Shown: one piece after another, positions 10,633 through 38,983 of the stretch | How positions within the stretch are numbered: the stretch's first letter is position 1 | Layout: every line of letters begins with the position of its first letter | DNA from: a virus | DNA length: 64,000 nucleotides | Virus genome (UHGV): UHGV-1375844 | Strand: one strand, 5' to 3' | Program-made: the position numbers and the translations under genes | Notes under the pieces: generated by a model | Database searches by the model: none | Told to the model about the DNA's origin: nothing | Seen by the model: the letters and a program-made list of their open reading frames with translations, nothing else

Positions 10633-10860
10633 TCAGCTCCGGTGCTCCCACTTACACAACCTTTCACCTATCGTATTGTGGATAAGCAGCTGTCGCTCTG
10701 TTTCCTCGGTCATAAAATCCTCTCTACTCACATAGATAGGATTTGCGGCATCGCAGAATTGTACGCCCAAGGTCTGGGGTTTAATCACGCATCCACTTAT
10801 CGCGAAGCTCGCGATGAATGGCAGAAGCATCCTTAGCCCTGACTTCATTAATCGTTTCAT
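10633..10860 (-). CDS. outer-membrane lipoprotein, o-spanin-like
   Basis: Signal peptide with lipobox (FAISGC); 5' end embedded out of frame in the i-spanin gene. Confidence 0.55.
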   Translation of the reverse strand: MKRLMKSGLRMLLPFIASFAISGCVIKPQTLGVQFCDAANPIYVSREDFMTEETERQLLIHNTIGERLCKWEHRS

Positions 10861-11032
10861 TTTTCACATCCACTGTGTTCTGAAGCCGTTTCCTGTCGTC
10901 TTGCCGCGCCTTTTCTTCCATTGCTTGCCGCGCCGCACGACCACCCATCGTATAGGCGCCTGCAAGCACTAAAAGAACGGCAGCCGCGGTAATCAGAGCA
11001 ATCTTTAGCTTCGAAAATAGGCTGCCGAACAT
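10781..11032 (-). CDS. i-spanin-like protein
   Basis: ORF trimmed to MFGSLFSKLKIALITAAAVLLVLAGAY (N-terminal TM) then charged coiled region. Confidence 0.5.
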   Translation of the reverse strand: MFGSLFSKLKIALITAAAVLLVLAGAYTMGGRAARQAMEEKARQDDRKRLQNTVDVKNETINEVRAKDASAIHRELRDKWMRD

Positions 11033-11033
11033 A

Positions 11034-11726
11034 TCAGACGATTCCTTTCTGATGCTTTCTGACCTGCGACCAGGCAATGAAGCCGGCCACGACGATAGTT
11101 GCGATCCCGAAGACGATGCGGATCGTGTCACCGCTGGTAATGTGGCCCTGTGCCTTGTCCATTGCCACCGATACCTGTGGCATGACATCGGCCAGCTGCG
11201 CCAGGCCAATACCTGCCGTAACGGTCGCACCGGCAGTCTCTTTGGTAACGGGAACAGCTTTTACAGTCTTTACCGGTTTGACAATGCCGGCACGTCGCAG
11301 ACCTTCTTCGATAAGCTCGGATGCATACCAGGTATTTGGTGTTTTCAGCGGACCTCGACCATTTTCGTGTCTGATGATCGCCTCTACCAGCGGTCTTAGG
11401 GTCTCGTAGTCATGTAAATCGATCACCATGTCCGGCGTGACACCAACAGCTTTGGCCACCTCATTCACGTAAGCCACAGTGTTGTTCTCATGTGGAGGCG
11501 CCCAGCGCTCAATAACTTCGCGGATCGTGTCGATGCTTGAGCCGTCTTTGGCTCGACGTTTGTCATGGTAGGTGATGAGCGTAACTGCCAATGCGCGAAT
11601 CCCCCATACGGGATCTTTGAAAGTGCAGAAGCGCGGTTCTGAAGGGTTGTCGACTAAGCCCTGCCACGGCGAACCTTTATCAAGATTGCCAGGGTTGTTG
11701 TTGCGAATACCTCTTGGAGTTTTCAT
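11034..11726 (-). CDS. putative cell-wall hydrolase / endolysin (by position), C-terminal TM helix
   Basis: 230 aa between holin-like gene and spanins; RNNNPGN motif near N-terminus; catalytic family not identified. Confidence 0.4.
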   Translation of the reverse strand: MKTPRGIRNNNPGNLDKGSPWQGLVDNPSEPRFCTFKDPVWGIRALAVTLITYHDKRRAKDGSSIDTIREVIERWAPPHENNTVAYVNEVAKAVGVTPDMVIDLHDYETLRPLVEAIIRHENGRGPLKTPNTWYASELIEEGLRRAGIVKPVKTVKAVPVTKETAGATVTAGIGLAQLADVMPQVSVAMDKAQGHITSGDTIRIVFGIATIVVAGFIAWSQVRKHQKGIV

Positions 11727-11737
11727 CCTTGATCTCC

Positions 11738-12073
11738 TTATTGCAGTCCATTTTTAACGCCGTAAGCGGCCAGCCCCAACAGCAGTACGGTAATCAGGAA
11801 CGACGTAATCTTTGAGACAATGCCGCCAAAAAACCCGCTGGAGATGGAGTCGAGCCGATTAAGAAGTTTGTCCAGATTTGAATGCTGGATGCTGTGTTGT
11901 GCCGGGGTCATATCGCCAAAGTAGGTCTTGAGCTGATCGTTAACTTCCTGACCAATCTCCTCGCGCAGTTCTTTGCCCAATTTGCCGACTACCTCGCGGG
12001 CAACAATCGCGGCAATGCGCTCTACCTGCTCTGGCGTTACGCCTGCCATCTCGTTCGACATTATTTCCTCCAT
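11738..12073 (-). CDS. putative holin / membrane protein
   Basis: 111 aa with C-terminal TM helix (ITSFLITVLLLGLAAYGV); first gene of presumed lysis cassette. Confidence 0.4.
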   Translation of the reverse strand: MEEIMSNEMAGVTPEQVERIAAIVAREVVGKLGKELREEIGQEVNDQLKTYFGDMTPAQHSIQHSNLDKLLNRLDSISSGFFGGIVSKITSFLITVLLLGLAAYGVKNGLQ

Positions 12074-12124
12074 GAAAAGTCAAATCGGGATGGCAGGGTT
12101 ATAACACATTAGCAAACAATTTTG

Positions 12125-12143
12125 TAGGTAAGCACTTACTTAT
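12125..12143. promoter_or_regulatory. motif A palindrome copy
   Basis: TAGGTAAGCACTTACTTAT between Gly-rich gene stop and holin-like gene. Confidence 0.45.
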
Positions 12144-12151
12144 TAATGCAT

Positions 12152-12976
12152 TTAAACACGGGTGCCATGAATTGTGCCAACCGTCACCCACGTTGGGGCA
12201 TTACCATTAACAGCAGCGCCACCAGCCCCACCTGCATACGGGGTGATATTCTTCCCCCCTCCAGACTGCGAAGCAGCTGCACCAGCGGAACCCAAGTCAC
12301 CACCTTTCCCGCCAACAGATGTTCCAAGGCTTGTGGAGGTATTCCCTGCACCTGGAGCCGTAAGCGAAGCATTGCTGCCGTTGCCACCGCCGCCGCTGGG
12401 GTAGGTTTTTGTACCACCGACGCCAAATGGTCGCCCGCCGCCGCCGCCTGAATAAGTTGGTTTATTATTACCAGCCCCAACAGCGCCGCCGCCTCCACCA
12501 CCGCCTCCAATAATGCCGTTATTTTGGATGCGCAGTTTGCTTCCGATGGCATTGGTGATCGCAGGACCGCCCGGCTTACCTTTGTTGGCATCGCCGTTTC
12601 CTCCACCGCCGCCATTTCCCCCACGGCCAAGCACCATTTGTCCCGAGTTAATCACAAGCAAGATATAAGCGCAGCTGGCAAGCTCGCTTGTAAAATTGAG
12701 ACAGGGCGCACTGGCAGAACTCGACACAATGGTACCGGTGATGTTGACTCTGATGGCGTTGTCCTTCACGCCTAAAGACTTAATCTGATTGACTAGAGTA
12801 GACCAGGAATAGTTGTTGTTCGCTGAAACATTGATGACCTGCTCTCTGGACTTGCCTACCAGGGTTTTCATCCAGAAAGGGGCGCCAACCCGTACAGATC
12901 TGCCGGCAGCTGACATCCATCGTTGCCCAGTCTCACTTACTGCGGAGGAGCCAACCCATCCGGAGTTGATGGTCAT
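12152..12976 (-). CDS. glycine-rich putative tail fibre / receptor-binding protein
   Basis: Start trimmed to MTINSGWVGSSAVS; N-terminal ~45 aa paralogous to 14410..14967; C-terminus is poly-Gly rich. Confidence 0.5.
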   Translation of the reverse strand: MTINSGWVGSSAVSETGQRWMSAAGRSVRVGAPFWMKTLVGKSREQVINVSANNNYSWSTLVNQIKSLGVKDNAIRVNITGTIVSSSASAPCLNFTSELASCAYILLVINSGQMVLGRGGNGGGGGNGDANKGKPGGPAITNAIGSKLRIQNNGIIGGGGGGGGAVGAGNNKPTYSGGGGGRPFGVGGTKTYPSGGGGNGSNASLTAPGAGNTSTSLGTSVGGKGGDLGSAGAAASQSGGGKNITPYAGGAGGAAVNGNAPTWVTVGTIHGTRV

Positions 12977-13227
12977 TTTCTCATCTCCTTGAGTTCCATA
13001 ACCTCTTTTTCGACGCTTTAACAGCTTCGACCATAATCCCAATGATACCGTTACATTTCAGACGAAGGCGTTCTTCTCCTGAATGGTCGTTTTTATCGGC
13101 TGTAACCAGCTCTGGTTGCAACTTTTACATCTCGGGCGGTCAAGCTACCCGCCATCTTGCCCGACATCATTTCCTTAATGAAAGTCAGTTCAGATGGCAG
13201 GTAATACTATACTTTTTTTACCGGTCT

Positions 13228-13247
13228 ATAGGTAAGCACTTACCTAT
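13228..13247. promoter_or_regulatory. motif A palindrome copy
   Basis: ATAGGTAAGCACTTACCTAT just downstream of lipoprotein gene stop. Confidence 0.45.
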
Positions 13248-13261
13248 ATAACAAGCTAATT

Positions 13262-13507
13262 TTAGGATTTTGGGCAGTTGATGGAGGTGAACGCCCCTTG
13301 CCCCACCCAACGCCAGTTAAAAATACTCCCGGCCCGATAAAGCGTATACTTACCTTCTTTCTTGATCGCATAAATTGGCACACTCGTTGACGAACCGCCA
13401 ACCATTGCCTTCCCATAGCAAACAGGCTCTGGTAATTTTTGACAGGCGCTCAATGTAAGTGTTACGCCTAGTAATAAAACTAATTTCTTCATTTTATATT
13501 CCATCAT
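13262..13507 (-). CDS. lipoprotein (candidate superinfection-exclusion / receptor-masking protein)
   Basis: Signal peptide plus lipobox LSAC; located inside the RBP-like cluster; AT-rich; start overlaps upstream stop. Confidence 0.5.
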   Translation of the reverse strand: MMEYKMKKLVLLLGVTLTLSACQKLPEPVCYGKAMVGGSSTSVPIYAIKKEGKYTLYRAGSIFNWRWVGQGAFTSINCPKS

Positions 13508-14112
13508 CCGTAGAGATTTCTGTTTAAGACTGGAACTCGGTTGTTGATAGCAAGGCTCGCCCCTCCATTAATTTCATTAACAAGGATAGAACTCACGGTA
13601 TTTCCGTAGCATGTGTAGCCGTAAACCAGCGTCTTAGCGCCACCCGGCATTGGAATAGCAAAGGCGTTAGCGTAAGTTGGCACAACCGCTACCGGATAAT
13701 TGAATACGTGCTTATCATTACTGTTCCAGCTATTATTATCAAGAAATGTGAAAGACAGTGGGATATTTGCCGTGTTATAGATCTCAACCCCTGAAGAATT
13801 GAAAAAACTCATTCCCCATTTTTCTTTTCTGGTTATGCCCGTAGCGAAAACATACACAGTTACGTTTGAATCACTCCCACGTCCACCGAAGCTGTAAATA
13901 ACCTGGTTATTGCGAACTATACGATTCGCAAGCAGTGAAACAGCTTTTGTATACGCCACGAAGACCATAGGGGACCGATCAGGAGATAGTCCCGTATTGA
14001 ACTCGCTCCCCCCTTTCAGTGAGACAACATGTTTGCTCTGGAAAACCAGAGGCGTAAGGCTTGGAGACATCCAGACCTTTCCATCAGATCGAACGATTTT
14101 GCTTCCGTACAT
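13504..14112 (-). CDS. hypothetical tail-fibre-associated protein (202 aa)
   Basis: AT-rich ORF coupled to neighbours by overlapping stop/start. Confidence 0.45.
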   Translation of the reverse strand: MYGSKIVRSDGKVWMSPSLTPLVFQSKHVVSLKGGSEFNTGLSPDRSPMVFVAYTKAVSLLANRIVRNNQVIYSFGGRGSDSNVTVYVFATGITRKEKWGMSFFNSSGVEIYNTANIPLSFTFLDNNSWNSNDKHVFNYPVAVVPTYANAFAIPMPGGAKTLVYGYTCYGNTVSSILVNEINGGASLAINNRVPVLNRNLYG

Positions 14113-14366
14113 TATTTCTGAAACACCATTAGGTAGATGGTTCCGTATGCATTTGTCCAGTTAATCTGGTTTCCTGAAATGGTTACACTGCCAATGTTGC
14201 CATTCAGTGTTTCCATAATGTAGTAATCAAGAGACATCCCCGACTCGACAGCATACCTTCTGCTGCCGCTACCGGTTGGCTGAAAATAATCCAGATAATA
14301 AATTGGCGCTAAGGCGTCGACCATTTCCTGTCTGCTCGGCGACCAAATTTTTGCTCCATAACTCAT
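14112..14366 (-). CDS. hypothetical protein (84 aa)
   Basis: Small ORF, TAATG overlap with next gene. Confidence 0.4.
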   Translation of the reverse strand: MSYGAKIWSPSRQEMVDALAPIYYLDYFQPTGSGSRRYAVESGMSLDYYIMETLNGNIGSVTISGNQINWTNAYGTIYLMVFQK

Positions 14367-14409
14367 ATATCATCCTTGATTATGTAAGGCGCTTGTGGGC
14401 GCCTTCTAA

Positions 14410-14967
14410 TTAAATTTTAGTTACGGCAATCGTTTTGCCATTTTGATTGTAAAGCCAGCCTCCTGCTGTACTCGCTCTATAATGCCTGGTGTTATATGCA
14501 AAGTGGCTCGGAGTGAAGGTAAAATTAGTTCCACCAAAAGAAAGCGTGAAATTTTGGTTCGGCCCATTAGTTAAACCTATATACATGGTTGTCGCATTTT
14601 GAACCTGGGAAACATGCGTAATAGCACACCCCAATAATGTTCCACTAACAGAGCCTGTTGCGTTAATCGAGAGCGGTTGTTGCGCACCGCTTACGACTGT
14701 TGCAGCAATGGCTCCTGTTTGAACGGAGTTATTTGAAAAACCACCATACGAGGATGTCCCTTGAATGAATTGACCGTTCGAAATCTGCGCTCTGAAAGCG
14801 TATGTGTTCCGGCCAACCACCACCGTGAAGTCCTGCATCGCTTTTCCAACCAGAGAACTCATCCAAAACGGAGTGCCAACCTTAACTTTGGAGCCAGCGG
14901 CAGACATCCACCGCTGGCCAGTAGTTGATACGGCTGACGACCCGACCCATCCTGAGCCAATCGCCAT
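14410..14967 (-). CDS. putative receptor-binding / tail fibre protein sharing N-terminal domain with 12152..12976
   Basis: MAIGSGWVGSSAVSTTGQRWMSAAG...VGTPFWM closely matches N-terminus of the Gly-rich protein. Confidence 0.5.
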   Translation of the reverse strand: MAIGSGWVGSSAVSTTGQRWMSAAGSKVKVGTPFWMSSLVGKAMQDFTVVVGRNTYAFRAQISNGQFIQGTSSYGGFSNNSVQTGAIAATVVSGAQQPLSINATGSVSGTLLGCAITHVSQVQNATTMYIGLTNGPNQNFTLSFGGTNFTFTPSHFAYNTRHYRASTAGGWLYNQNGKTIAVTKI

Positions 14968-17900
14968 TATCTGTTCTCCTTGATTTCACGGATTTCGTCA
15001 CGCAGCTCTTTCACCGCTTCGACCAGCAGTCCAATGACGCCGTTATAGTTCAGACGCAGACGCTCTTCCCCGGATTGGTCATTTTTATCAACCGTTACCA
15101 GTTCTGGCTGTACCTTCTGAACATCCTGAGCGATCAGGCCACCAGACTGCTCGTATCGATCATGTACCTGAATCTCATACAGAACCCCTTCAATCTGCCC
15201 CAGCTTGTCGAGTGCGCTCTCGATTTTGCGGATATTCCGCTTACTTCTACGGTCAGAACGGATATATACGTCGTTGAAGCTACCATTACCGCCACATACC
15301 CAAGTGCCATCGTTTTGCAGATATGCCTGGGCATCCGTACCGTTGGCCGTCCGTGAGTTGTTGATCATGTAAAAACCAAACTGGCTGTTACCCAGACCGC
15401 CGACGAAAAACTTACGATCGGCATGATCTTGTCTCAACAACGCTTGGGCCGAGCTGGTTGACACGGCATTCCGTCCAAAAATAACGTTCTGATCACGCAT
15501 GTTAATCCACGAGCCAGAGCCGCTATTGATGGCGAAGCGACCTGCGTAGACCCACGCACTTGAAGTAATGTCTCCTGACACAGAAAGGGGCTTATTGCTT
15601 TGCAACGTCCCGTTGACGAATCGGAACACATGAGCGCTATTGGCGTAGACATCCAGTACGCCATCCCCATTTTGCTTAAACCCGGTATCGTTATCTCCCA
15701 GAACAATAGAGTTCCCACCTAATCCATTCGTTACGCCTAAACCGAGGCTGCCGGCAATAGTTGCGCCACCAGCGATATCAAGGCCGTTAGCCATCGACGC
15801 ACGACCAGAAGTGTTGTTAATGGTCAGCGGTCGAAGGCCGTTCCATCCACCAAACTTGTCGCCTGATGCCGTTAAAAGGAAATAGGTGCTGCTGCCATCG
15901 TTTCGGATGAAGAAGCCAAAGTTACCGTAAGCAGCTCGCAGAGCATTGGCGCTTAATGAGGTGATCTCATTTCTTGCACGAACACCATATCCAGTGTTGA
16001 TAATGAGTTCCTCTTGCGCGTCAGTATTCCCTGTCGCCCAACGGATAGTTCCACCCTGAACCGTCTCGTGCCAGATTGTGTCGCTACTTCCCCCGCGGTA
16101 TTTGCGGAGATATTTCTTACCCCCTGTCGTGCCTCCACATAAAGCGGTGGCCATGTACGTGCCCTGGGCGCCGCCATCCTGATTAATGGTTCCGGTAACT
16201 GCTCCACCGCCTGTAGGGAGTGCCCCAACCTCAGCGGCGCTCGGTTTGTTAGCCGTGGTGTAGATCTGCGCCCAACCAGACCAATTGGCGTCAGTGGTAT
16301 CACGACGAGAGCGGATGTAAGCTGGGGCATGGCCACCGCTGGTGCCACTCCAGCCGAGTAACAACTCGCCTTCGCCTGCAGCAGACCCTCCTTTAAAATG
16401 AAGAACGTTGCCGTAAGTTGTTGGATAGCCGTTGTTGTAGGCTTCATACATCTGGATACCCGGCATGGCCCCCTGCGTACTTCCGGCCAGCGCGGTAACG
16501 CGACCGCGAGATACCAGAGTAGGGATGCTGATATTCGCGGTACCATCAAAAGCGACATTGTTGATCGATCTTGCCGTCTGCAATTTGCTCGCTGAGACCG
16601 CATTAGCACCTGAAGCAAGAGCGCCAATATCGGCAGGCGTTGGCTTATTACGGGTGTTATATAAGCGACGCCAGCCTGGTCCATAGCCGTCACCATTATT
16701 TACGTAAATAAACTCGGCGTTAGTTACCCCACCATGACCTGTCGTCGTTGGTGTGGTAATGCGGATCGTGTAGTTACCTGAGTTTCCATTGCTGAAAACT
16801 TCAATAACTGAACCAGAGAGATCAATCCTGCCGCATCCAGTGTCGTCAATGTAGTTATTGCTGGCGTAAGACCATGAGCAACGCGCGATCCAACATTTAT
16901 ACCCAAAAGCACCTTGTTCATTAAGCCAGGTAACAAACTGAGCTGTGGTAAAGGCCGCACCACTGCCACTATTCAGCCAACCACTAACTGCTGCCGCAGC
17001 ATTGATGTTTGCCGGGCTAATGTTAATGTCAGAAGAACCGTCGAAGTTTACACCTGCGATTTTACGTGCGGTTTGTAGCTTAGTTGCAGTCGCTGCGTTG
17101 CCTGTCGTGCTTTGATTTCCCTGGGTGTTAACACCAGGCAAGTTGATATCGGCGGAACCGTCAAAATTCACCCCACCAATTTTTCGGGGCGTCCTGAGCT
17201 TGCTGGCCGTACCCGCATTCCCTGATGTTGACTGGTTCCCCTCGGCATTCACACCCGGAAGATTGATGTCCTGGCTGCCATCGAACAGCACCCCACCAAT
17301 ACGACGTCCCGTCTGGAGTACCGTCGCAGTACTCGCATTGCCCACCAGTGAGCCTGTAATAGCACCATTGATGTCTGAAAGTACTCGATGATATACCGTT
17401 CCCTCTACGGCGCCTTCAGGCAACGAGTCAACCGATTCGATCACTTCCAGCGATTCAACCGCGGCGCCGGAGAATTGCAGGTTCACAATTAACTTTTGAG
17501 CGCCCGCGCCCACGCGAAGGTAGATGTCGTAATTTTCTTCGTCGGTATTAACGGTGGCCACGCTATTTACAGCGGAGTCCTGCGTTAAATAGGCAACAGC
17601 ATTGAGACCTTTGGGATCGCCCCCCGCTGTGCGAAGAACAATGTCAGCCATCGCAGCCTGGCCTGGGCTATCGGTATCATAGCCAGCGCCACCGATCACT
17701 TCGATGTAGACAGTGCTGGTCGCTTGCGGCATACGCGCACGCGAGACTTTTACCCACTTGGGCGTATCAGAGGTCAAGTCCAGTTCGGCGGACGTACCTT
17801 TCCATTTCACGCTGGCGATACTGGACTGCGCATTCTGCGCATATTCGTATGCCTTGTCCTCAGACGCTTTCGCTTTCGTCTGGGATGCTTTGGCCTCAGC

Positions 17901-19166
17901 TGCCGAAGTCGAGGCCTCGGACGCTTTTGCTGTCGCGAGTGTGGCCGACTCAGCGGCTTCTGTTGCCTTTGCTTCAATACCTGCCAGCGCGTCAGTTGCG
18001 GTGGTCGCAGATGCGGCTGCGCTTGCCTCAGACTTCTTCGCTTCGCCAGCACTTGATGCAGCTGCATCTTTGCTGGCCTCTGCCGCATCAGCATATTCGC
18101 CAGCTGTAGTGGCGCTCCCCGCCGCCGCGTCAGCGCTTAAACCGGCAGCCACTTTACTCGCGGCGGCGGCTGTTTCCGAGGCGGCAGCGTTGGTTTCAGA
18201 CACTTTAGCCGCGGCAGCGCTGGCGGCCGACCCGTCGGCGCTCTGCGCCGCGTTTGTTTCAGATGTTTTGGCTGCGTTCTGAGATGCAAGTGCGGCAGCT
18301 GCACTACCCGCTGCTGCGTTTTCCGATGCGGCGGCATTGCTCTCAGAAACTTCAGCAGCCGCAGCGGAATTAGATGCTGCGGTCGCAGAATCCGCAGCAG
18401 AGACAGCGCTGCCAGCAGCGTTAGTTTCTGAGGCTTTCGCGGCATTTTTGGACGCTGCGGCACTCGAAGCAGATGCCCCTGCTTCGGCGGCTTTCTCCGT
18501 TGCGGTGGCAGCTGAAGCTACAGCAGTCTCTTTATAGCTTTCTGCATTCGTTTCGGAGGTCTTTGCACCCTTAGCGGCTTCGCTGGCAACGCTTTCGGAT
18601 GCAGCAGCTGCGGCAGCACTTTTACTGGCCTCAGTCGCCTTTGTTCCGGCAGTGCTTGCGCTATTGGCAGCTGCTGCTGCGCTGGCGGCTGCCTGTTTAG
18701 CTTTGTCACCCGCGGCATCGATTGCATCCGTATTGTCTCTGTACCATTGCTGGTTGGCATTGTGCTCATTGACGATTTGGGTGAGCGATTTGACTGTCAC
18801 CTCAGTGCCGTCCTCGCGTTCGAGTGTCACTTCATCAATGGCAGTTAACCAGCTTCGCATTGTCTTCGAGTCGGCTGACATTCGAGTCATCAATGCCGTG
18901 AAGCGAGCACTGAACTGTGTCAGATCGCCTTCATAGGTAGTGATGATGCGGCATGGGACATCATTCTGGGTCTCACCCGAGTACTGCTCCATAAGTGTCA
19001 GGCGGGTGTCATTTAGCACACGCTTAATTTCGTACAGCTTGTTATCGGGGCCGATGACAATCATGCCCGGCAACACGCCATTGGCAGTGACGTTCCAAAA
19101 CGTGCCAGTGCCCTCAAGCGTGTCACTTCCCTGTGTAAATGTGATAGTACCTTCCCTGTACCACAT
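14967..19166 (-). CDS. lateral (L-shaped-type) tail fibre with C-terminal intramolecular chaperone domain
   Basis: 1399 aa; C-terminal DVYIRSDRRSKRNIRKIE matches the self-cleaving chaperone signature of tail fibres/endosialidases; Ala-rich region; repeated FDGS.DIN units. Confidence 0.75.
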   Translation of the reverse strand: MWYREGTITFTQGSDTLEGTGTFWNVTANGVLPGMIVIGPDNKLYEIKRVLNDTRLTLMEQYSGETQNDVPCRIITTYEGDLTQFSARFTALMTRMSADSKTMRSWLTAIDEVTLEREDGTEVTVKSLTQIVNEHNANQQWYRDNTDAIDAAGDKAKQAAASAAAAANSASTAGTKATEASKSAAAAAASESVASEAAKGAKTSETNAESYKETAVASAATATEKAAEAGASASSAAASKNAAKASETNAAGSAVSAADSATAASNSAAAAEVSESNAAASENAAAGSAAAALASQNAAKTSETNAAQSADGSAASAAAAKVSETNAAASETAAAASKVAAGLSADAAAGSATTAGEYADAAEASKDAAASSAGEAKKSEASAAASATTATDALAGIEAKATEAAESATLATAKASEASTSAAEAKASQTKAKASEDKAYEYAQNAQSSIASVKWKGTSAELDLTSDTPKWVKVSRARMPQATSTVYIEVIGGAGYDTDSPGQAAMADIVLRTAGGDPKGLNAVAYLTQDSAVNSVATVNTDEENYDIYLRVGAGAQKLIVNLQFSGAAVESLEVIESVDSLPEGAVEGTVYHRVLSDINGAITGSLVGNASTATVLQTGRRIGGVLFDGSQDINLPGVNAEGNQSTSGNAGTASKLRTPRKIGGVNFDGSADINLPGVNTQGNQSTTGNAATATKLQTARKIAGVNFDGSSDINISPANINAAAAVSGWLNSGSGAAFTTAQFVTWLNEQGAFGYKCWIARCSWSYASNNYIDDTGCGRIDLSGSVIEVFSNGNSGNYTIRITTPTTTGHGGVTNAEFIYVNNGDGYGPGWRRLYNTRNKPTPADIGALASGANAVSASKLQTARSINNVAFDGTANISIPTLVSRGRVTALAGSTQGAMPGIQMYEAYNNGYPTTYGNVLHFKGGSAAGEGELLLGWSGTSGGHAPAYIRSRRDTTDANWSGWAQIYTTANKPSAAEVGALPTGGGAVTGTINQDGGAQGTYMATALCGGTTGGKKYLRKYRGGSSDTIWHETVQGGTIRWATGNTDAQEELIINTGYGVRARNEITSLSANALRAAYGNFGFFIRNDGSSTYFLLTASGDKFGGWNGLRPLTINNTSGRASMANGLDIAGGATIAGSLGLGVTNGLGGNSIVLGDNDTGFKQNGDGVLDVYANSAHVFRFVNGTLQSNKPLSVSGDITSSAWVYAGRFAINSGSGSWINMRDQNVIFGRNAVSTSSAQALLRQDHADRKFFVGGLGNSQFGFYMINNSRTANGTDAQAYLQNDGTWVCGGNGSFNDVYIRSDRRSKRNIRKIESALDKLGQIEGVLYEIQVHDRYEQSGGLIAQDVQKVQPELVTVDKNDQSGEERLRLNYNGVIGLLVEAVKELRDEIREIKENR

Positions 19167-37372: not shown

Positions 37373-38947
37373 TCACTCGGTCTCTTGAGTAGATGAGTCC
37401 CCATTCCCTCGGGGTTGATCTTGCCCGCTCTCTTGGGCTGCATCTCGATCATAAGTAAGTACTGACTTATTTTCAAGGGTGTTTAGATCATTTTTTAGAG
37501 GAAATTTCAAGAGGTCTTTATCAAATTCCTTTTTCATCGCTTCGGAAATGTTAGGGAAGACTTTCTCGATAAGCATTTCCATCTGGTGCCGACGAACAGA
37601 ATCTGGCGCCTGCAGCAATGCGAGTTTCTCAGCAACAGCAAATTCGTCAGTCAGCCCGCGAATATCGAAACTCTCCGGGTAAGCAATTAAAGAGTGGTCT
37701 TCGTCCAGTTCGACACCCATCCACTTCGCGGCCAGCATCATCATTTGGCGCTCGGCTCTTTCGAGACGTTCAGCCTTTGTCACCAGCAGACTGTTAACTC
37801 TCTGGAAGTCGTACATTTTGGCTGCGCCTGATGAGTTATCGATACCCTGCGCGTTATCCTGCTTGGTTCGCTCTCCTGCAACACCAACGGAGTGGTAGAT
37901 CTCATTAATCACGGTCTTAATCGTGGTAATGATCATCTGCGCTTGTTTTGGGTCAGGCGAAAGGTAAAACGGCTGGTTCCCGCCCTCGGAATCGTAGGTG
38001 AAAACACGCTTCGTCCCCATCTCCAGCACCTTGTCGTGATTTTCATCGCCCGGCAGTAGAGACTGAACAGGGATAGCAAGCTGGCTAAATGTCTGATCCT
38101 GAATGATGGCGTCCAGGTTCGAGAGATAGTTAGCGACGGCCCGATCGAGATAGGCAATATCATCAATGAGTGACGGGCTGAAATAAGGTGATTCACTTTC
38201 CCCGATGCAATCTACCGGGAATACCGGTACCGCGCCCAACTTGTGCTCACCGTAGTCCTCCAGCACGACTTTTGCCTGCCTGCGACCTGCGCCACCGGAA
38301 CTCTTTTTCACCTCTTCACGGAAGAGATACCATTCATTTTGTGTCCATAGACGATAACGCTGGTATTCCTGACCAGTTGAGGTGAAAGGGTCCGTATCGT
38401 CACGCGCAATTTCTACGATCAGCGCCCACAGCATATTGCCATCTTCGTCCCAGGCCACATCAAGCAGCTGCTGCGGCGAAATCCAGTAGGCATAGGCTCG
38501 CGCCCCCTTCTGTTTCTCGTCAGCAACGGACTCAACGTCACCGTTCATTGTGCTATCGACCACAACCCAGATGCGGCCGTAAATAGACGACTGAAGATCG
38601 ATTGCCGCCATGAACGCATCAATGGAAGCATTCTGCCGTGTGGCTCGTTTCCAGAAATTGCGGATCTGCTCGGGCGCCTCTTCGATATTGCGATGAATAT
38701 CCTCTTTGAAGAGATATTTGTTGATCAGGTTTACCACTTCGCGAGTGTGGTTAAAGCGATACGCTCGCTCAAGGCGCTCCTTGAACTCCTGATCACCCTC
38801 TTTGAAGTAACGAAAGATATTTTCGCTGAACCAGGCTCGCCCGCCAGCGTAAGTGCTGGCGAGAAAATCCCAATGTTCTTTTTTCTTCTCATATTCGGGG
38901 TGGCGCCGGGCCACCAGATCTTTGATTTGCTTATCAGTCAATTCCAT
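37373..38947 (-). CDS. portal protein
   Basis: 524 aa directly downstream of terminase large subunit. Confidence 0.7.
   Translation of the reverse strand: MELTDKQIKDLVARRHPEYEKKKEHWDFLASTYAGGRAWFSENIFRYFKEGDQEFKERLERAYRFNHTREVVNLINKYLFKEDIHRNIEEAPEQIRNFWKRATRQNASIDAFMAAIDLQSSIYGRIWVVVDSTMNGDVESVADEKQKGARAYAYWISPQQLLDVAWDEDGNMLWALIVEIARDDTDPFTSTGQEYQRYRLWTQNEWYLFREEVKKSSGGAGRRQAKVVLEDYGEHKLGAVPVFPVDCIGESESPYFSPSLIDDIAYLDRAVANYLSNLDAIIQDQTFSQLAIPVQSLLPGDENHDKVLEMGTKRVFTYDSEGGNQPFYLSPDPKQAQMIITTIKTVINEIYHSVGVAGERTKQDNAQGIDNSSGAAKMYDFQRVNSLLVTKAERLERAERQMMMLAAKWMGVELDEDHSLIAYPESFDIRGLTDEFAVAEKLALLQAPDSVRRHQMEMLIEKVFPNISEAMKKEFDKDLLKFPLKNDLNTLENKSVLTYDRDAAQESGQDQPRGNGDSSTQETE
37451..37470. promoter_or_regulatory. 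motif A palindrome copy inside portal 3' coding region
   Basis: ATAAGTAAGTACTGACTTAT about 100 nt upstream of scaffold start. Confidence 0.4.
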
Positions 38948-38963: not shown

Positions 38964-38983
38964 ATAGGTAAGCACTTACTTAT
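38964..38983. promoter_or_regulatory. motif A palindrome copy
   Basis: ATAGGTAAGCACTTACTTAT spans terminase large subunit stop; AGGAGA RBS and portal ATG follow. Confidence 0.5.

Follow-up and report, generated by a model that had tools for sequence, protein, structure and literature searches.

How a single tail fibre gene came to be followed by two adhesin genes, and what the phage might gain from both, is the question raised by positions 12,152 to 14,967 of the viral genome UHGV-1375844, analysed here as a window of 64,000 nucleotides (nt) in which all the relevant genes lie on the minus strand. Read along that strand, the order is tail tip protein J, lateral tail fibre, adhesin A, an open reading frame (ORF) of 84 amino acids (aa), an ORF of 202 aa, a lipoprotein, 285 nt of non-coding DNA, adhesin B, a holin-like gene, endolysin and spanins. 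Two 106.6-kb plasmids of Salmonella enterica, pSA20094620.2 (NZ_CP030187) and NZ_CP044180, match the region 11700-15200 at 99.3% identity; over the shared parts, identity is about 81% to Salmonella phage SSU5 and likewise to numerous plasmids of Enterobacter, Citrobacter, Escherichia and Salmonella that are IncFIB-typed and non-mobilizable. On these identities and on synteny, the order of the tail, lysis, ParA and DnaB genes being that kept in SSU5 and in IncFIB-typed non-mobilizable plasmids of ~105-115 kb, the element is assigned to the SSU5-like phage-plasmids. All the parts of the locus belong to known families and follow the T2/S16 paradigm; what is unusual is the fusion of two modules and the fact that a successful Salmonella phage-plasmid lineage has kept both adhesins under selection.

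The first-pass annotation had described two receptor-binding-like paralogs with a common N-terminus and different C-termini, and its coordinates were right. Adhesin A (14410..14967, minus strand; 185 aa) and adhesin B (12152..12976, minus strand; 274 aa), which RefSeq annotates identically in the 99.3%-identical plasmid, share 42% identity over 99 aa by BLASTP (E=3e-22) and diverge past residue ~45-60. Although it overstated the ~45-aa N-terminus as almost identical, the actual value of 73% over 45 residues (75% over 44) is far above chance. In fact, both proteins are Gp38_N adhesins with differing C-domains, the Pfam model PF21721 being matched by A at positions 1-40 of 40 (E=1.4e-20) and by B at positions 1-39 of 40 (E=1.3e-19), both above the 25-bit cut-off. 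The poly-glycine domain seen in one paralog belongs to adhesin B, in which Gp38_N is followed by a beta-helix and a polyglycine sandwich. The protein covers the full PF05268 model of this glycine-rich domain (positions 1-218 of 218, E=1.1e-49), belongs to phrog_2056 (E=3.7e-70), matches S16 gp38 (PDB 6f45_D) over its full length (E=1.7e-36) and is 90% identical in aa to the 'receptor-recognizing protein' of Enterobacter plasmids, so that its sequence identifies it as a complete T2/S16-type Gp38 adhesin. Adhesin A gave no match to PF05268, and its PDB match was limited to residues 1-54; beyond Gp38_N (residues 1-40) it has a non-glycine C-domain, rendered by AlphaFold2 as a plain beta-sandwich and classed as phrog_1121. 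It shares the Gp38_N anchor but falls into another C-domain class; its counterpart in SSU5 is gp22, at 50% identity. As to position, adhesin A lies directly 3' of the S74-bearing fibre gene, its ATG overlapping the fibre stop codon, whereas adhesin B follows in the window only a ~125-nt relic of a chaperone-fibre gene, its 90%-identical Enterobacter orthologue directly following an intact fibre gene. The AAGGAG Shine-Dalgarno sequence has been retained by both.

The reason for this layout is a recombination scar, at which, as read from the alignments, a datable event has brought two alternative modules together. Module A comprises fibre, short adhesin, cor cassette and holin, and is found alone in SSU5 and in many plasmids, one of them from Enterobacter hormaechei; module B comprises fibre, canonical Gp38 and holin, and is found alone in Enterobacter, Salmonella and E. 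coli plasmids. In PLSDB, homologues of the 202-aa protein (at least 60% identity) occur in 126 plasmids and the Gp38 body in 86, while in the plasmid comparison the double layout was seen only in the two Salmonella plasmids. The earlier suggestion of an exchangeable receptor-binding cassette is thus upheld, since related SSU5-like plasmids carry one module or the other, and further support comes from the conserved blocks on either side, the fibre-end/Gp38_N block upstream and the holin downstream, which are the natural crossover points for module swaps.

The scar itself can be followed base by base. From 14366 to 13148 the window matches SSU5, the alignment extending across cor and the region between cor and holin to 20 nt inside the holin gene, with the cor cassette having ~78% DNA identity to that of SSU5; from 13142 to 11000 it aligns with an Enterobacter ludwigii module-B plasmid, homology beginning exactly at 13142, ~125 nt before the end of the fibre gene of that plasmid. 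The junction reads ATGTCGGGCAAGATGGCGGG (holin start) and then TAGCTTGACCGCCCGAGATGTAAAAGTTGCAACCAGAG... (fibre 3' end), with a possible TGGYGG microhomology at the join. The left half, defined by the SSU5 alignment (13148..13261, minus strand), duplicates the module-A intergenic region between cor and holin, palindrome GGTAAGTGCTTACC (13231-13244) included, and runs ~20 nt into the holin gene. The right half, recovered by tblastn (12977..13147, minus strand), consists of a relic of the module-B fibre gene, its last ~125 nt, and then of the Shine-Dalgarno sequence that belongs to adhesin B. In this relic, 36 codons upstream of adhesin B encode 28 residues (78%) identical to the fibre C-terminus (E=5e-17, tblastn); its DNA shares 76% identity with the 3' end of the Enterobacter fibre gene and now contains an in-frame stop or frameshift. 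A direct repeat of 223 bp, which the first-pass annotation had missed (12902-13124 against 14893-15116, 72-77% identity, spacing 1991 bp), is the fibre 3' end plus Gp38_N and arose by the recombination. Downstream, the holin-like gene (11738..12151, minus strand; 'putative holin' in SSU5, phrog_5093) opens the lysis cassette, is accompanied by the original one of the two copies of the pre-holin intergenic region and is the conserved anchor of both modules, with a synonymous divergence (dS) of 0.026 from the Enterobacter plasmid over the holin region. The backbone is nearer to the Enterobacter module-B plasmids (91-92%) than to SSU5, but with no close A-only relative in the sample, module A may have entered a B-type backbone or module B an A-type one.

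Two further observations concern the scar. The palindrome, in the form TA(A/G)GTAAGTGCTTACCTA, stands at 12127-12140, 13231-13244 and 38967-38980 (minus strand), that is, ahead of the holin gene, ahead of the scar with adhesin B, and immediately ahead of the ribosome-binding site that serves a 524-aa ORF (37373..38947); eight matches were counted on both strands where 0.47 were expected, the pre-holin copy is invariant in SSU5 and the Enterobacter plasmids, and the motif may be a late-gene regulatory element. In addition, the scar has created a chimeric ORF of 24 codons (MSGKMAGSLTARDVKVATRAGYSR; 13094-13168, minus strand), which starts at the duplicated holin ATG with its ribosome-binding site and could be translated, although it is probably meaningless.

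If both adhesins are used, they would have to share one fibre. The lateral tail fibre (14967..19166, minus strand; 1399 aa) matches PF21446 (E=6.5e-22) and, at residues 1304-1358, the Peptidase_S74 family PF13884 (E=5.6e-12), and it is the sole chaperone-bearing fibre within the window. Its architecture consists of an Ala/Ser-rich shaft, a Gp34_trimer-like domain, a Mu-S-like tip and a C-terminal intramolecular chaperone, with PDB matches to the Mu tail fibre S (5yvq), to T4 gp34 and to S16 gp37 (6f45_A), the latter aligning with the fibre C-terminus. Self-cleavage is predicted before Ser1304 (YIR|SDRRSK), and the motif NDVYIR|SDRRSK at the expected cleavage serine is closely similar in the fibres of SSU5-like plasmids, LPML1 and PEi20. 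In T2, T6 and S16, gp37 sheds its chaperone after trimerisation and is without a receptor-binding domain of its own, the N-terminal domain of gp38 docking at the tip (bioRxiv 10.64898/2026.05.12.724579; PMC3157838). In the present fibre, the 110 residues preceding the cleavage motif are identical at 104 positions to the Enterobacter fibre that is naturally paired with a B-type adhesin and at 101 positions to the A-type fibre of SSU5, which amounts to 92-95% identity with tips that carry either type. Together with the single chaperone-bearing fibre and the AAGGAG retained on both genes, these near-identical tips make the co-loading of both adhesins plausible. Co-variation between the fibre tip and the Gp38_N subtype does not discriminate, the tip being almost invariant across SSU5-like plasmids, even those with the other (IVGVPGWIG) N-terminus subtype. 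As a separate observation on the fibre, its shaft at 17990-18690 is made of imperfect Ala/Ser-rich repeats of 63-nt period (families D1 and D4 of the repeat search) with a G+C content of up to 0.63, and this region is likely to be length-variable between relatives; in two of them (GCA_010983075.1 and GCA_021056105.1) the fibre is called at only 894 aa, which points to either a disrupted Ala-rich repeat region or a faulty assembly.

The hybrid has spread, and its second adhesin has been under purifying selection. The exact adhesin A sequence was found in 169 assembly-index blocks, mostly contigs of 50-200 kb, and all ten contexts listed are the hybrid or a derivative of it; the exact adhesin B sequence was found in 23 contigs, with the hybrid layout wherever the flank suffices. 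The layout is, then, common in public Salmonella-type assemblies. Among 15 full-length contigs, adhesin B is present as seven haplotypes, between which 19 changes are synonymous and 3 missense (P=6e-9 under neutrality), with an omega of 0.05 between the window and pSA20094620.2, of 0.12 against the Enterobacter orthologue and of 0.18 for residues 1-45. Diversity across 12000-13500 is about tenfold above that of the flanks; when the window is compared with NZ_CP030187, otherwise ~99.8% identical, 23 of the 54 differences over 15.5 kb fall within this segment. Import, as opposed to accumulation in place, may therefore explain some of the variation, and the pattern suggests that adhesin B alleles were brought into the hybrid lineage by recombination.

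Between the two adhesins lies a cassette of three genes, in a stretch (13250-14600) where the G+C content drops to 41-46% from about 50-60% in the flanks. The first-pass annotation had seen here two AT-rich ORFs and a lipoprotein that might mask a receptor. All three ORFs are real and form the known three-gene cor cassette: the first, of 84 aa (14112..14366, minus strand), matches phrog_557 (E=4.4e-23), labelled in PHROG as a putative 'outer membrane protein', and the second, of 202 aa (13504..14112, minus strand), matches phrog_425 (E=2.1e-48), labelled as a putative 'membrane associated protein'. The 202-aa protein shows 92% identity with its SSU5 homologue, against ~25-27% with those of Stx phages and of T1-like phages, and the gene pair is present in Stx phages and Drexlerviridae as well. 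The third gene (13262..13507, minus strand; 81 aa, or 76 aa from the downstream start taken by RefSeq) encodes a Cor-family superinfection-exclusion lipoprotein (phrog_1119, E=6.8e-30) with the lipobox LSAC; its LPAM_1 match is weak, at 19.7 bits just below the 20-bit cut-off, and it is annotated as 'lipoprotein' in NZ_CP030187 and as 'Cor superinfection exclusion protein' in SSU5. A 2026 paper on the T1-like phage KanT1 describes the same three-gene locus in the same order downstream of tail fibre genes, as found here, records it in the FhuA-dependent phages T1, HK022, N15, ES18 and phi80 and consistently in FhuA-targeting BASEL phages, and predicts that Cor binds FhuA as T5 Llp does (PMC13164509). 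Since the locus is tied to FhuA-dependent phages, the target of Cor is by analogy most likely FhuA, rather than the receptor of either adhesin, and FhuA is likely to be the terminal receptor of the element; the guess of a masking lipoprotein is thus supported. Within the 202-aa gene, positions 13717-13732 (codons 127-132) concentrate five amino-acid changes in six codons (N127K, S128N and N132 to D, S or K) and most of the gene's five synonymous differences, dividing 15 related contigs seven against eight, a pattern like that of a short patch of gene conversion or of a hypervariable loop.

Each of these parts has precedents in known systems. The tip of T2, T6 and S16 (gp37 plus gp38, PDB 6F45) resembles this one in its S74 chaperone at the fibre end, in the small separate adhesin directly downstream, in Gp38_N and, for adhesin B, in the polyglycine sandwich; it differs in that the present element is a siphovirus-type phage-plasmid and not a T-even myovirus, with a Mu S-like tip, two adhesin genes and an adhesin A without a polyglycine domain. 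SSU5 (gp21-gp22 and Cor; SSU5_021 to SSU5_025) shows the same family and order (fibre, short adhesin, 84 aa, 188-202 aa, Cor, holin), but neither a second adhesin nor a scar. The cor cassette of T1, phi80, N15, HK022 and ES18 has the same phrog_557, phrog_425 and Cor lipoprotein in the same order downstream of fibre genes; here, however, it follows a Gp38-type adhesin and stands between two adhesins, and the use of FhuA is deduced from the family. The closest parallels to the doubling itself are tandem gene-38 pairs in the T4-like Edwardsiella phages PEi20 and PEi26, in the Ounavirinae phage LPML1 and in a 222-kb E. ludwigii plasmid (NZ_CP134650), where two adhesins also follow one chaperone-bearing fibre. 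Their N-termini are 66-82% identical within a genome and diverge after ~45-60 residues, both genes being annotated as gene 38 in PEi20 and PEi26. Unlike those of the window, these pairs are tidy, 23-156 nt apart with no genes between, and no fibre relics were found between the adhesins of PEi20, LPML1 and NZ_CP134650. Retention of both adhesins is uncommon. Two matching places were found in ~1% of matching phage records (822 places in 814 records; 922 in 913), and literature searches returned no published functional analysis of tandem Gp38_N pairs. With regard to LPML1 itself (OK283618.1, 'Listeria phage LPML1'), its classification in Ounavirinae together with its enterobacterial-type Gp38 adhesins and S74 fibre makes the 'Listeria' host label look doubtful. 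Two other kinds of system offer a looser comparison. The G segment of Mu (Gin) and the C segment of P1 (Cin) also provide two alternative receptor-binding ends per tail fibre, but by means of inverted repeats, a serine invertase and alternative fibre C-terminal exons, none of which was found here (for the recombinase, in the four adjacent ORFs checked). The T5-like phages DT57C and DT571/2 have branched L-shaped fibres (LtfA/LtfB) in which two receptor-binding proteins on one lateral fibre system give dual specificity (PMC4728585); there both proteins are fibrous and act simultaneously at separate sites of a branched fibre, whereas here monomeric caps would compete for one site.

Put together, these elements allow an account which we hold to be somewhat more probable than not: two modules have been joined, both adhesins are made late, and they compete for the same fibre tips, widening reversible adsorption. 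In such a mechanism, an illegitimate join at a TGGYGG-like microhomology would have put the 3'-terminal ~125 nt of a fibre gene behind codon ~7 of the holin gene, a homologous crossover elsewhere completing the exchange, with the outcome of one fibre gene followed by both adhesin genes. The fibre would trimerise through its C-terminal chaperone, which would then cleave itself off, and a monomeric adhesin would dock through its ~45-aa Gp38_N and set the specificity; with both adhesins expressed late in infection as rivals for the same tips, virions would carry a mix of fibres and adsorb reversibly to a broader range of cells. Fibres tipped with A would probably bind the lipopolysaccharide (LPS) core, since SSU5 gp22 is cited as a binder of LPS core oligosaccharide in PMC12312913, and those tipped with B probably an outer-membrane protein, as canonical Gp38 adhesins of the T-even type do (PMC12032242; bioRxiv 10.64898/2026.05.12.724579). 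Irreversible binding would probably be due to the tail tip and FhuA, with Cor shielding FhuA in cells that carry the element. A bolder form of the idea, to which we give a little less than even weight, is that two structurally unrelated adhesins compete for one tip so that each virion is a random mosaic, a form of bet-hedging achieved without any DNA switch, and that the same solution has been reached independently in at least three other backbones (the T4-like PEi20, the Felix-O1-like LPML1 and the 222-kb Enterobacter plasmid), unrecognised as a strategy.

Several points weigh against this account. Adhesin B has been inactivated independently at least three times in the hybrid lineage, by a W35* nonsense mutation (GCA_021056105.1), by two one-base deletions (GCA_045624365.1) and by a 646-bp deletion which removes 12404..13049 and with it adhesin B (GCA_054350835.1). 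From the synonymous excess and these repeated losses it follows that adhesin B is under constraint and yet dispensable, at least during plasmid carriage, and part of the excess could come from imports out of module-B plasmids, where the gene is surely used. Moreover, adhesin B is by its position uncoupled translationally from any fibre gene, lying ~1.4 kb and a scar away, and the receptor assignments are drawn by analogy, at just 50% identity to gp22 in the case of A.

These same points feed the most serious alternative, rather unlikely in our estimation, according to which adhesin B is a passenger stranded behind the scar, hardly present in virions and slowly decaying, while adhesin A alone is used. 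The fibre and holin relics do indicate an accidental origin, three independent inactivations are seen among roughly nine haplotypes, the coupling of adhesin B to a fibre stop codon is gone, and the raised local diversity is compatible with import instead of evolution in place. Nevertheless, the gene is intact in most contigs, with 19 synonymous against 3 missense changes (omega=0.05, P=6e-9), and the adjacent non-coding fibre relic has degenerated in the meantime, with its stop and frameshift. Its Shine-Dalgarno sequence is kept, the fibre tip is fully compatible, and the tidy two-adhesin operons of other genomes indicate that such an arrangement can be stable. A use of the two adhesins in sequence or in different settings is improbable in our view: B might, for instance, share a transcript with the lysis cassette, started at the duplicated pre-holin element, and serve as a decoy or receptor blocker on the debris of lysed cells. 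The palindromic element, which precedes the holin in all relatives, is indeed duplicated upstream of adhesin B, and free recombinant gp38 can block the adsorption of another phage (PMC12946066). However, scans of 11600-15200 for sigma-70 promoters and intrinsic terminators gave counts equal to the shuffled expectation, and so are uninformative, and adhesin B keeps its full Gp38_N docking domain under constraint, as the omega of residues 1-45 indicates.

A programmed switch of host range, which the first-pass annotation had entertained as an unrecognised switching system, deserves very little credence. In its most concrete form, the direct repeats flanking the A cassette would recombine to delete or exchange it, toggling between A and B specificity, and recombination from repeat to repeat would indeed leave a clean fibre-Gp38_B arrangement with the layout of the module-B plasmids. 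But the repeats are only 72-77% identical, no context that carries the exact adhesin B sequence shows the deletion product, the sole deletion observed, that of 646 bp, takes B instead of A without using the repeats, and a deletion, being one-way, is in any case no switch. A repeat-mediated deletion switch was accordingly rejected. So was a switch of the invertase or shufflon type: no inverted repeats flank the adhesin genes, the five inverted pairs found being 70-78% matches of 23-37 nt located elsewhere, a check of the four adjacent ORFs detected no recombinase family, and all 15 full-length related contigs are collinear, without inversion.

Some features of the surrounding genes may be added. 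Two spanin-like genes overlap at 10633-10860 and 10781-11035 (minus strand), a 75-aa lipoprotein (lipobox ISGC) overlapping the end of an 84-aa gene; the lipoprotein ORF is absent from the PLSDB gene table of pSA20094620.2, such tables being incomplete, and SSU5 annotates the equivalent Rz-like spanins. Upstream, the J-like tail tip gene measures 4689 nt in module-B Enterobacter plasmids without the cor cassette (L004 and L005 in our sample), 4278 nt in the window lineage and 4158 nt in SSU5, and the longer J of the module-B plasmids is reminiscent of an observation on BASEL phages, in which a C-terminal extension of J can substitute for a separate receptor-binding locus.

Among Enterobacteriaceae from clinics and the food chain, SSU5-like phage-plasmids are common, and they can carry resistance genes, so what determines the cells that they can infect is of practical relevance. 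In this context, the host-recognition module of the family has at least two interchangeable forms, swapped between the fibre 3' end/Gp38_N block and the holin gene. If both adhesins load on the fibre, the hybrid would represent a simple, recombinase-free way of widening host range and, in turn, a natural template for the engineering of dual-specificity fibres through the addition of a second Gp38_N-anchored adhesin gene.

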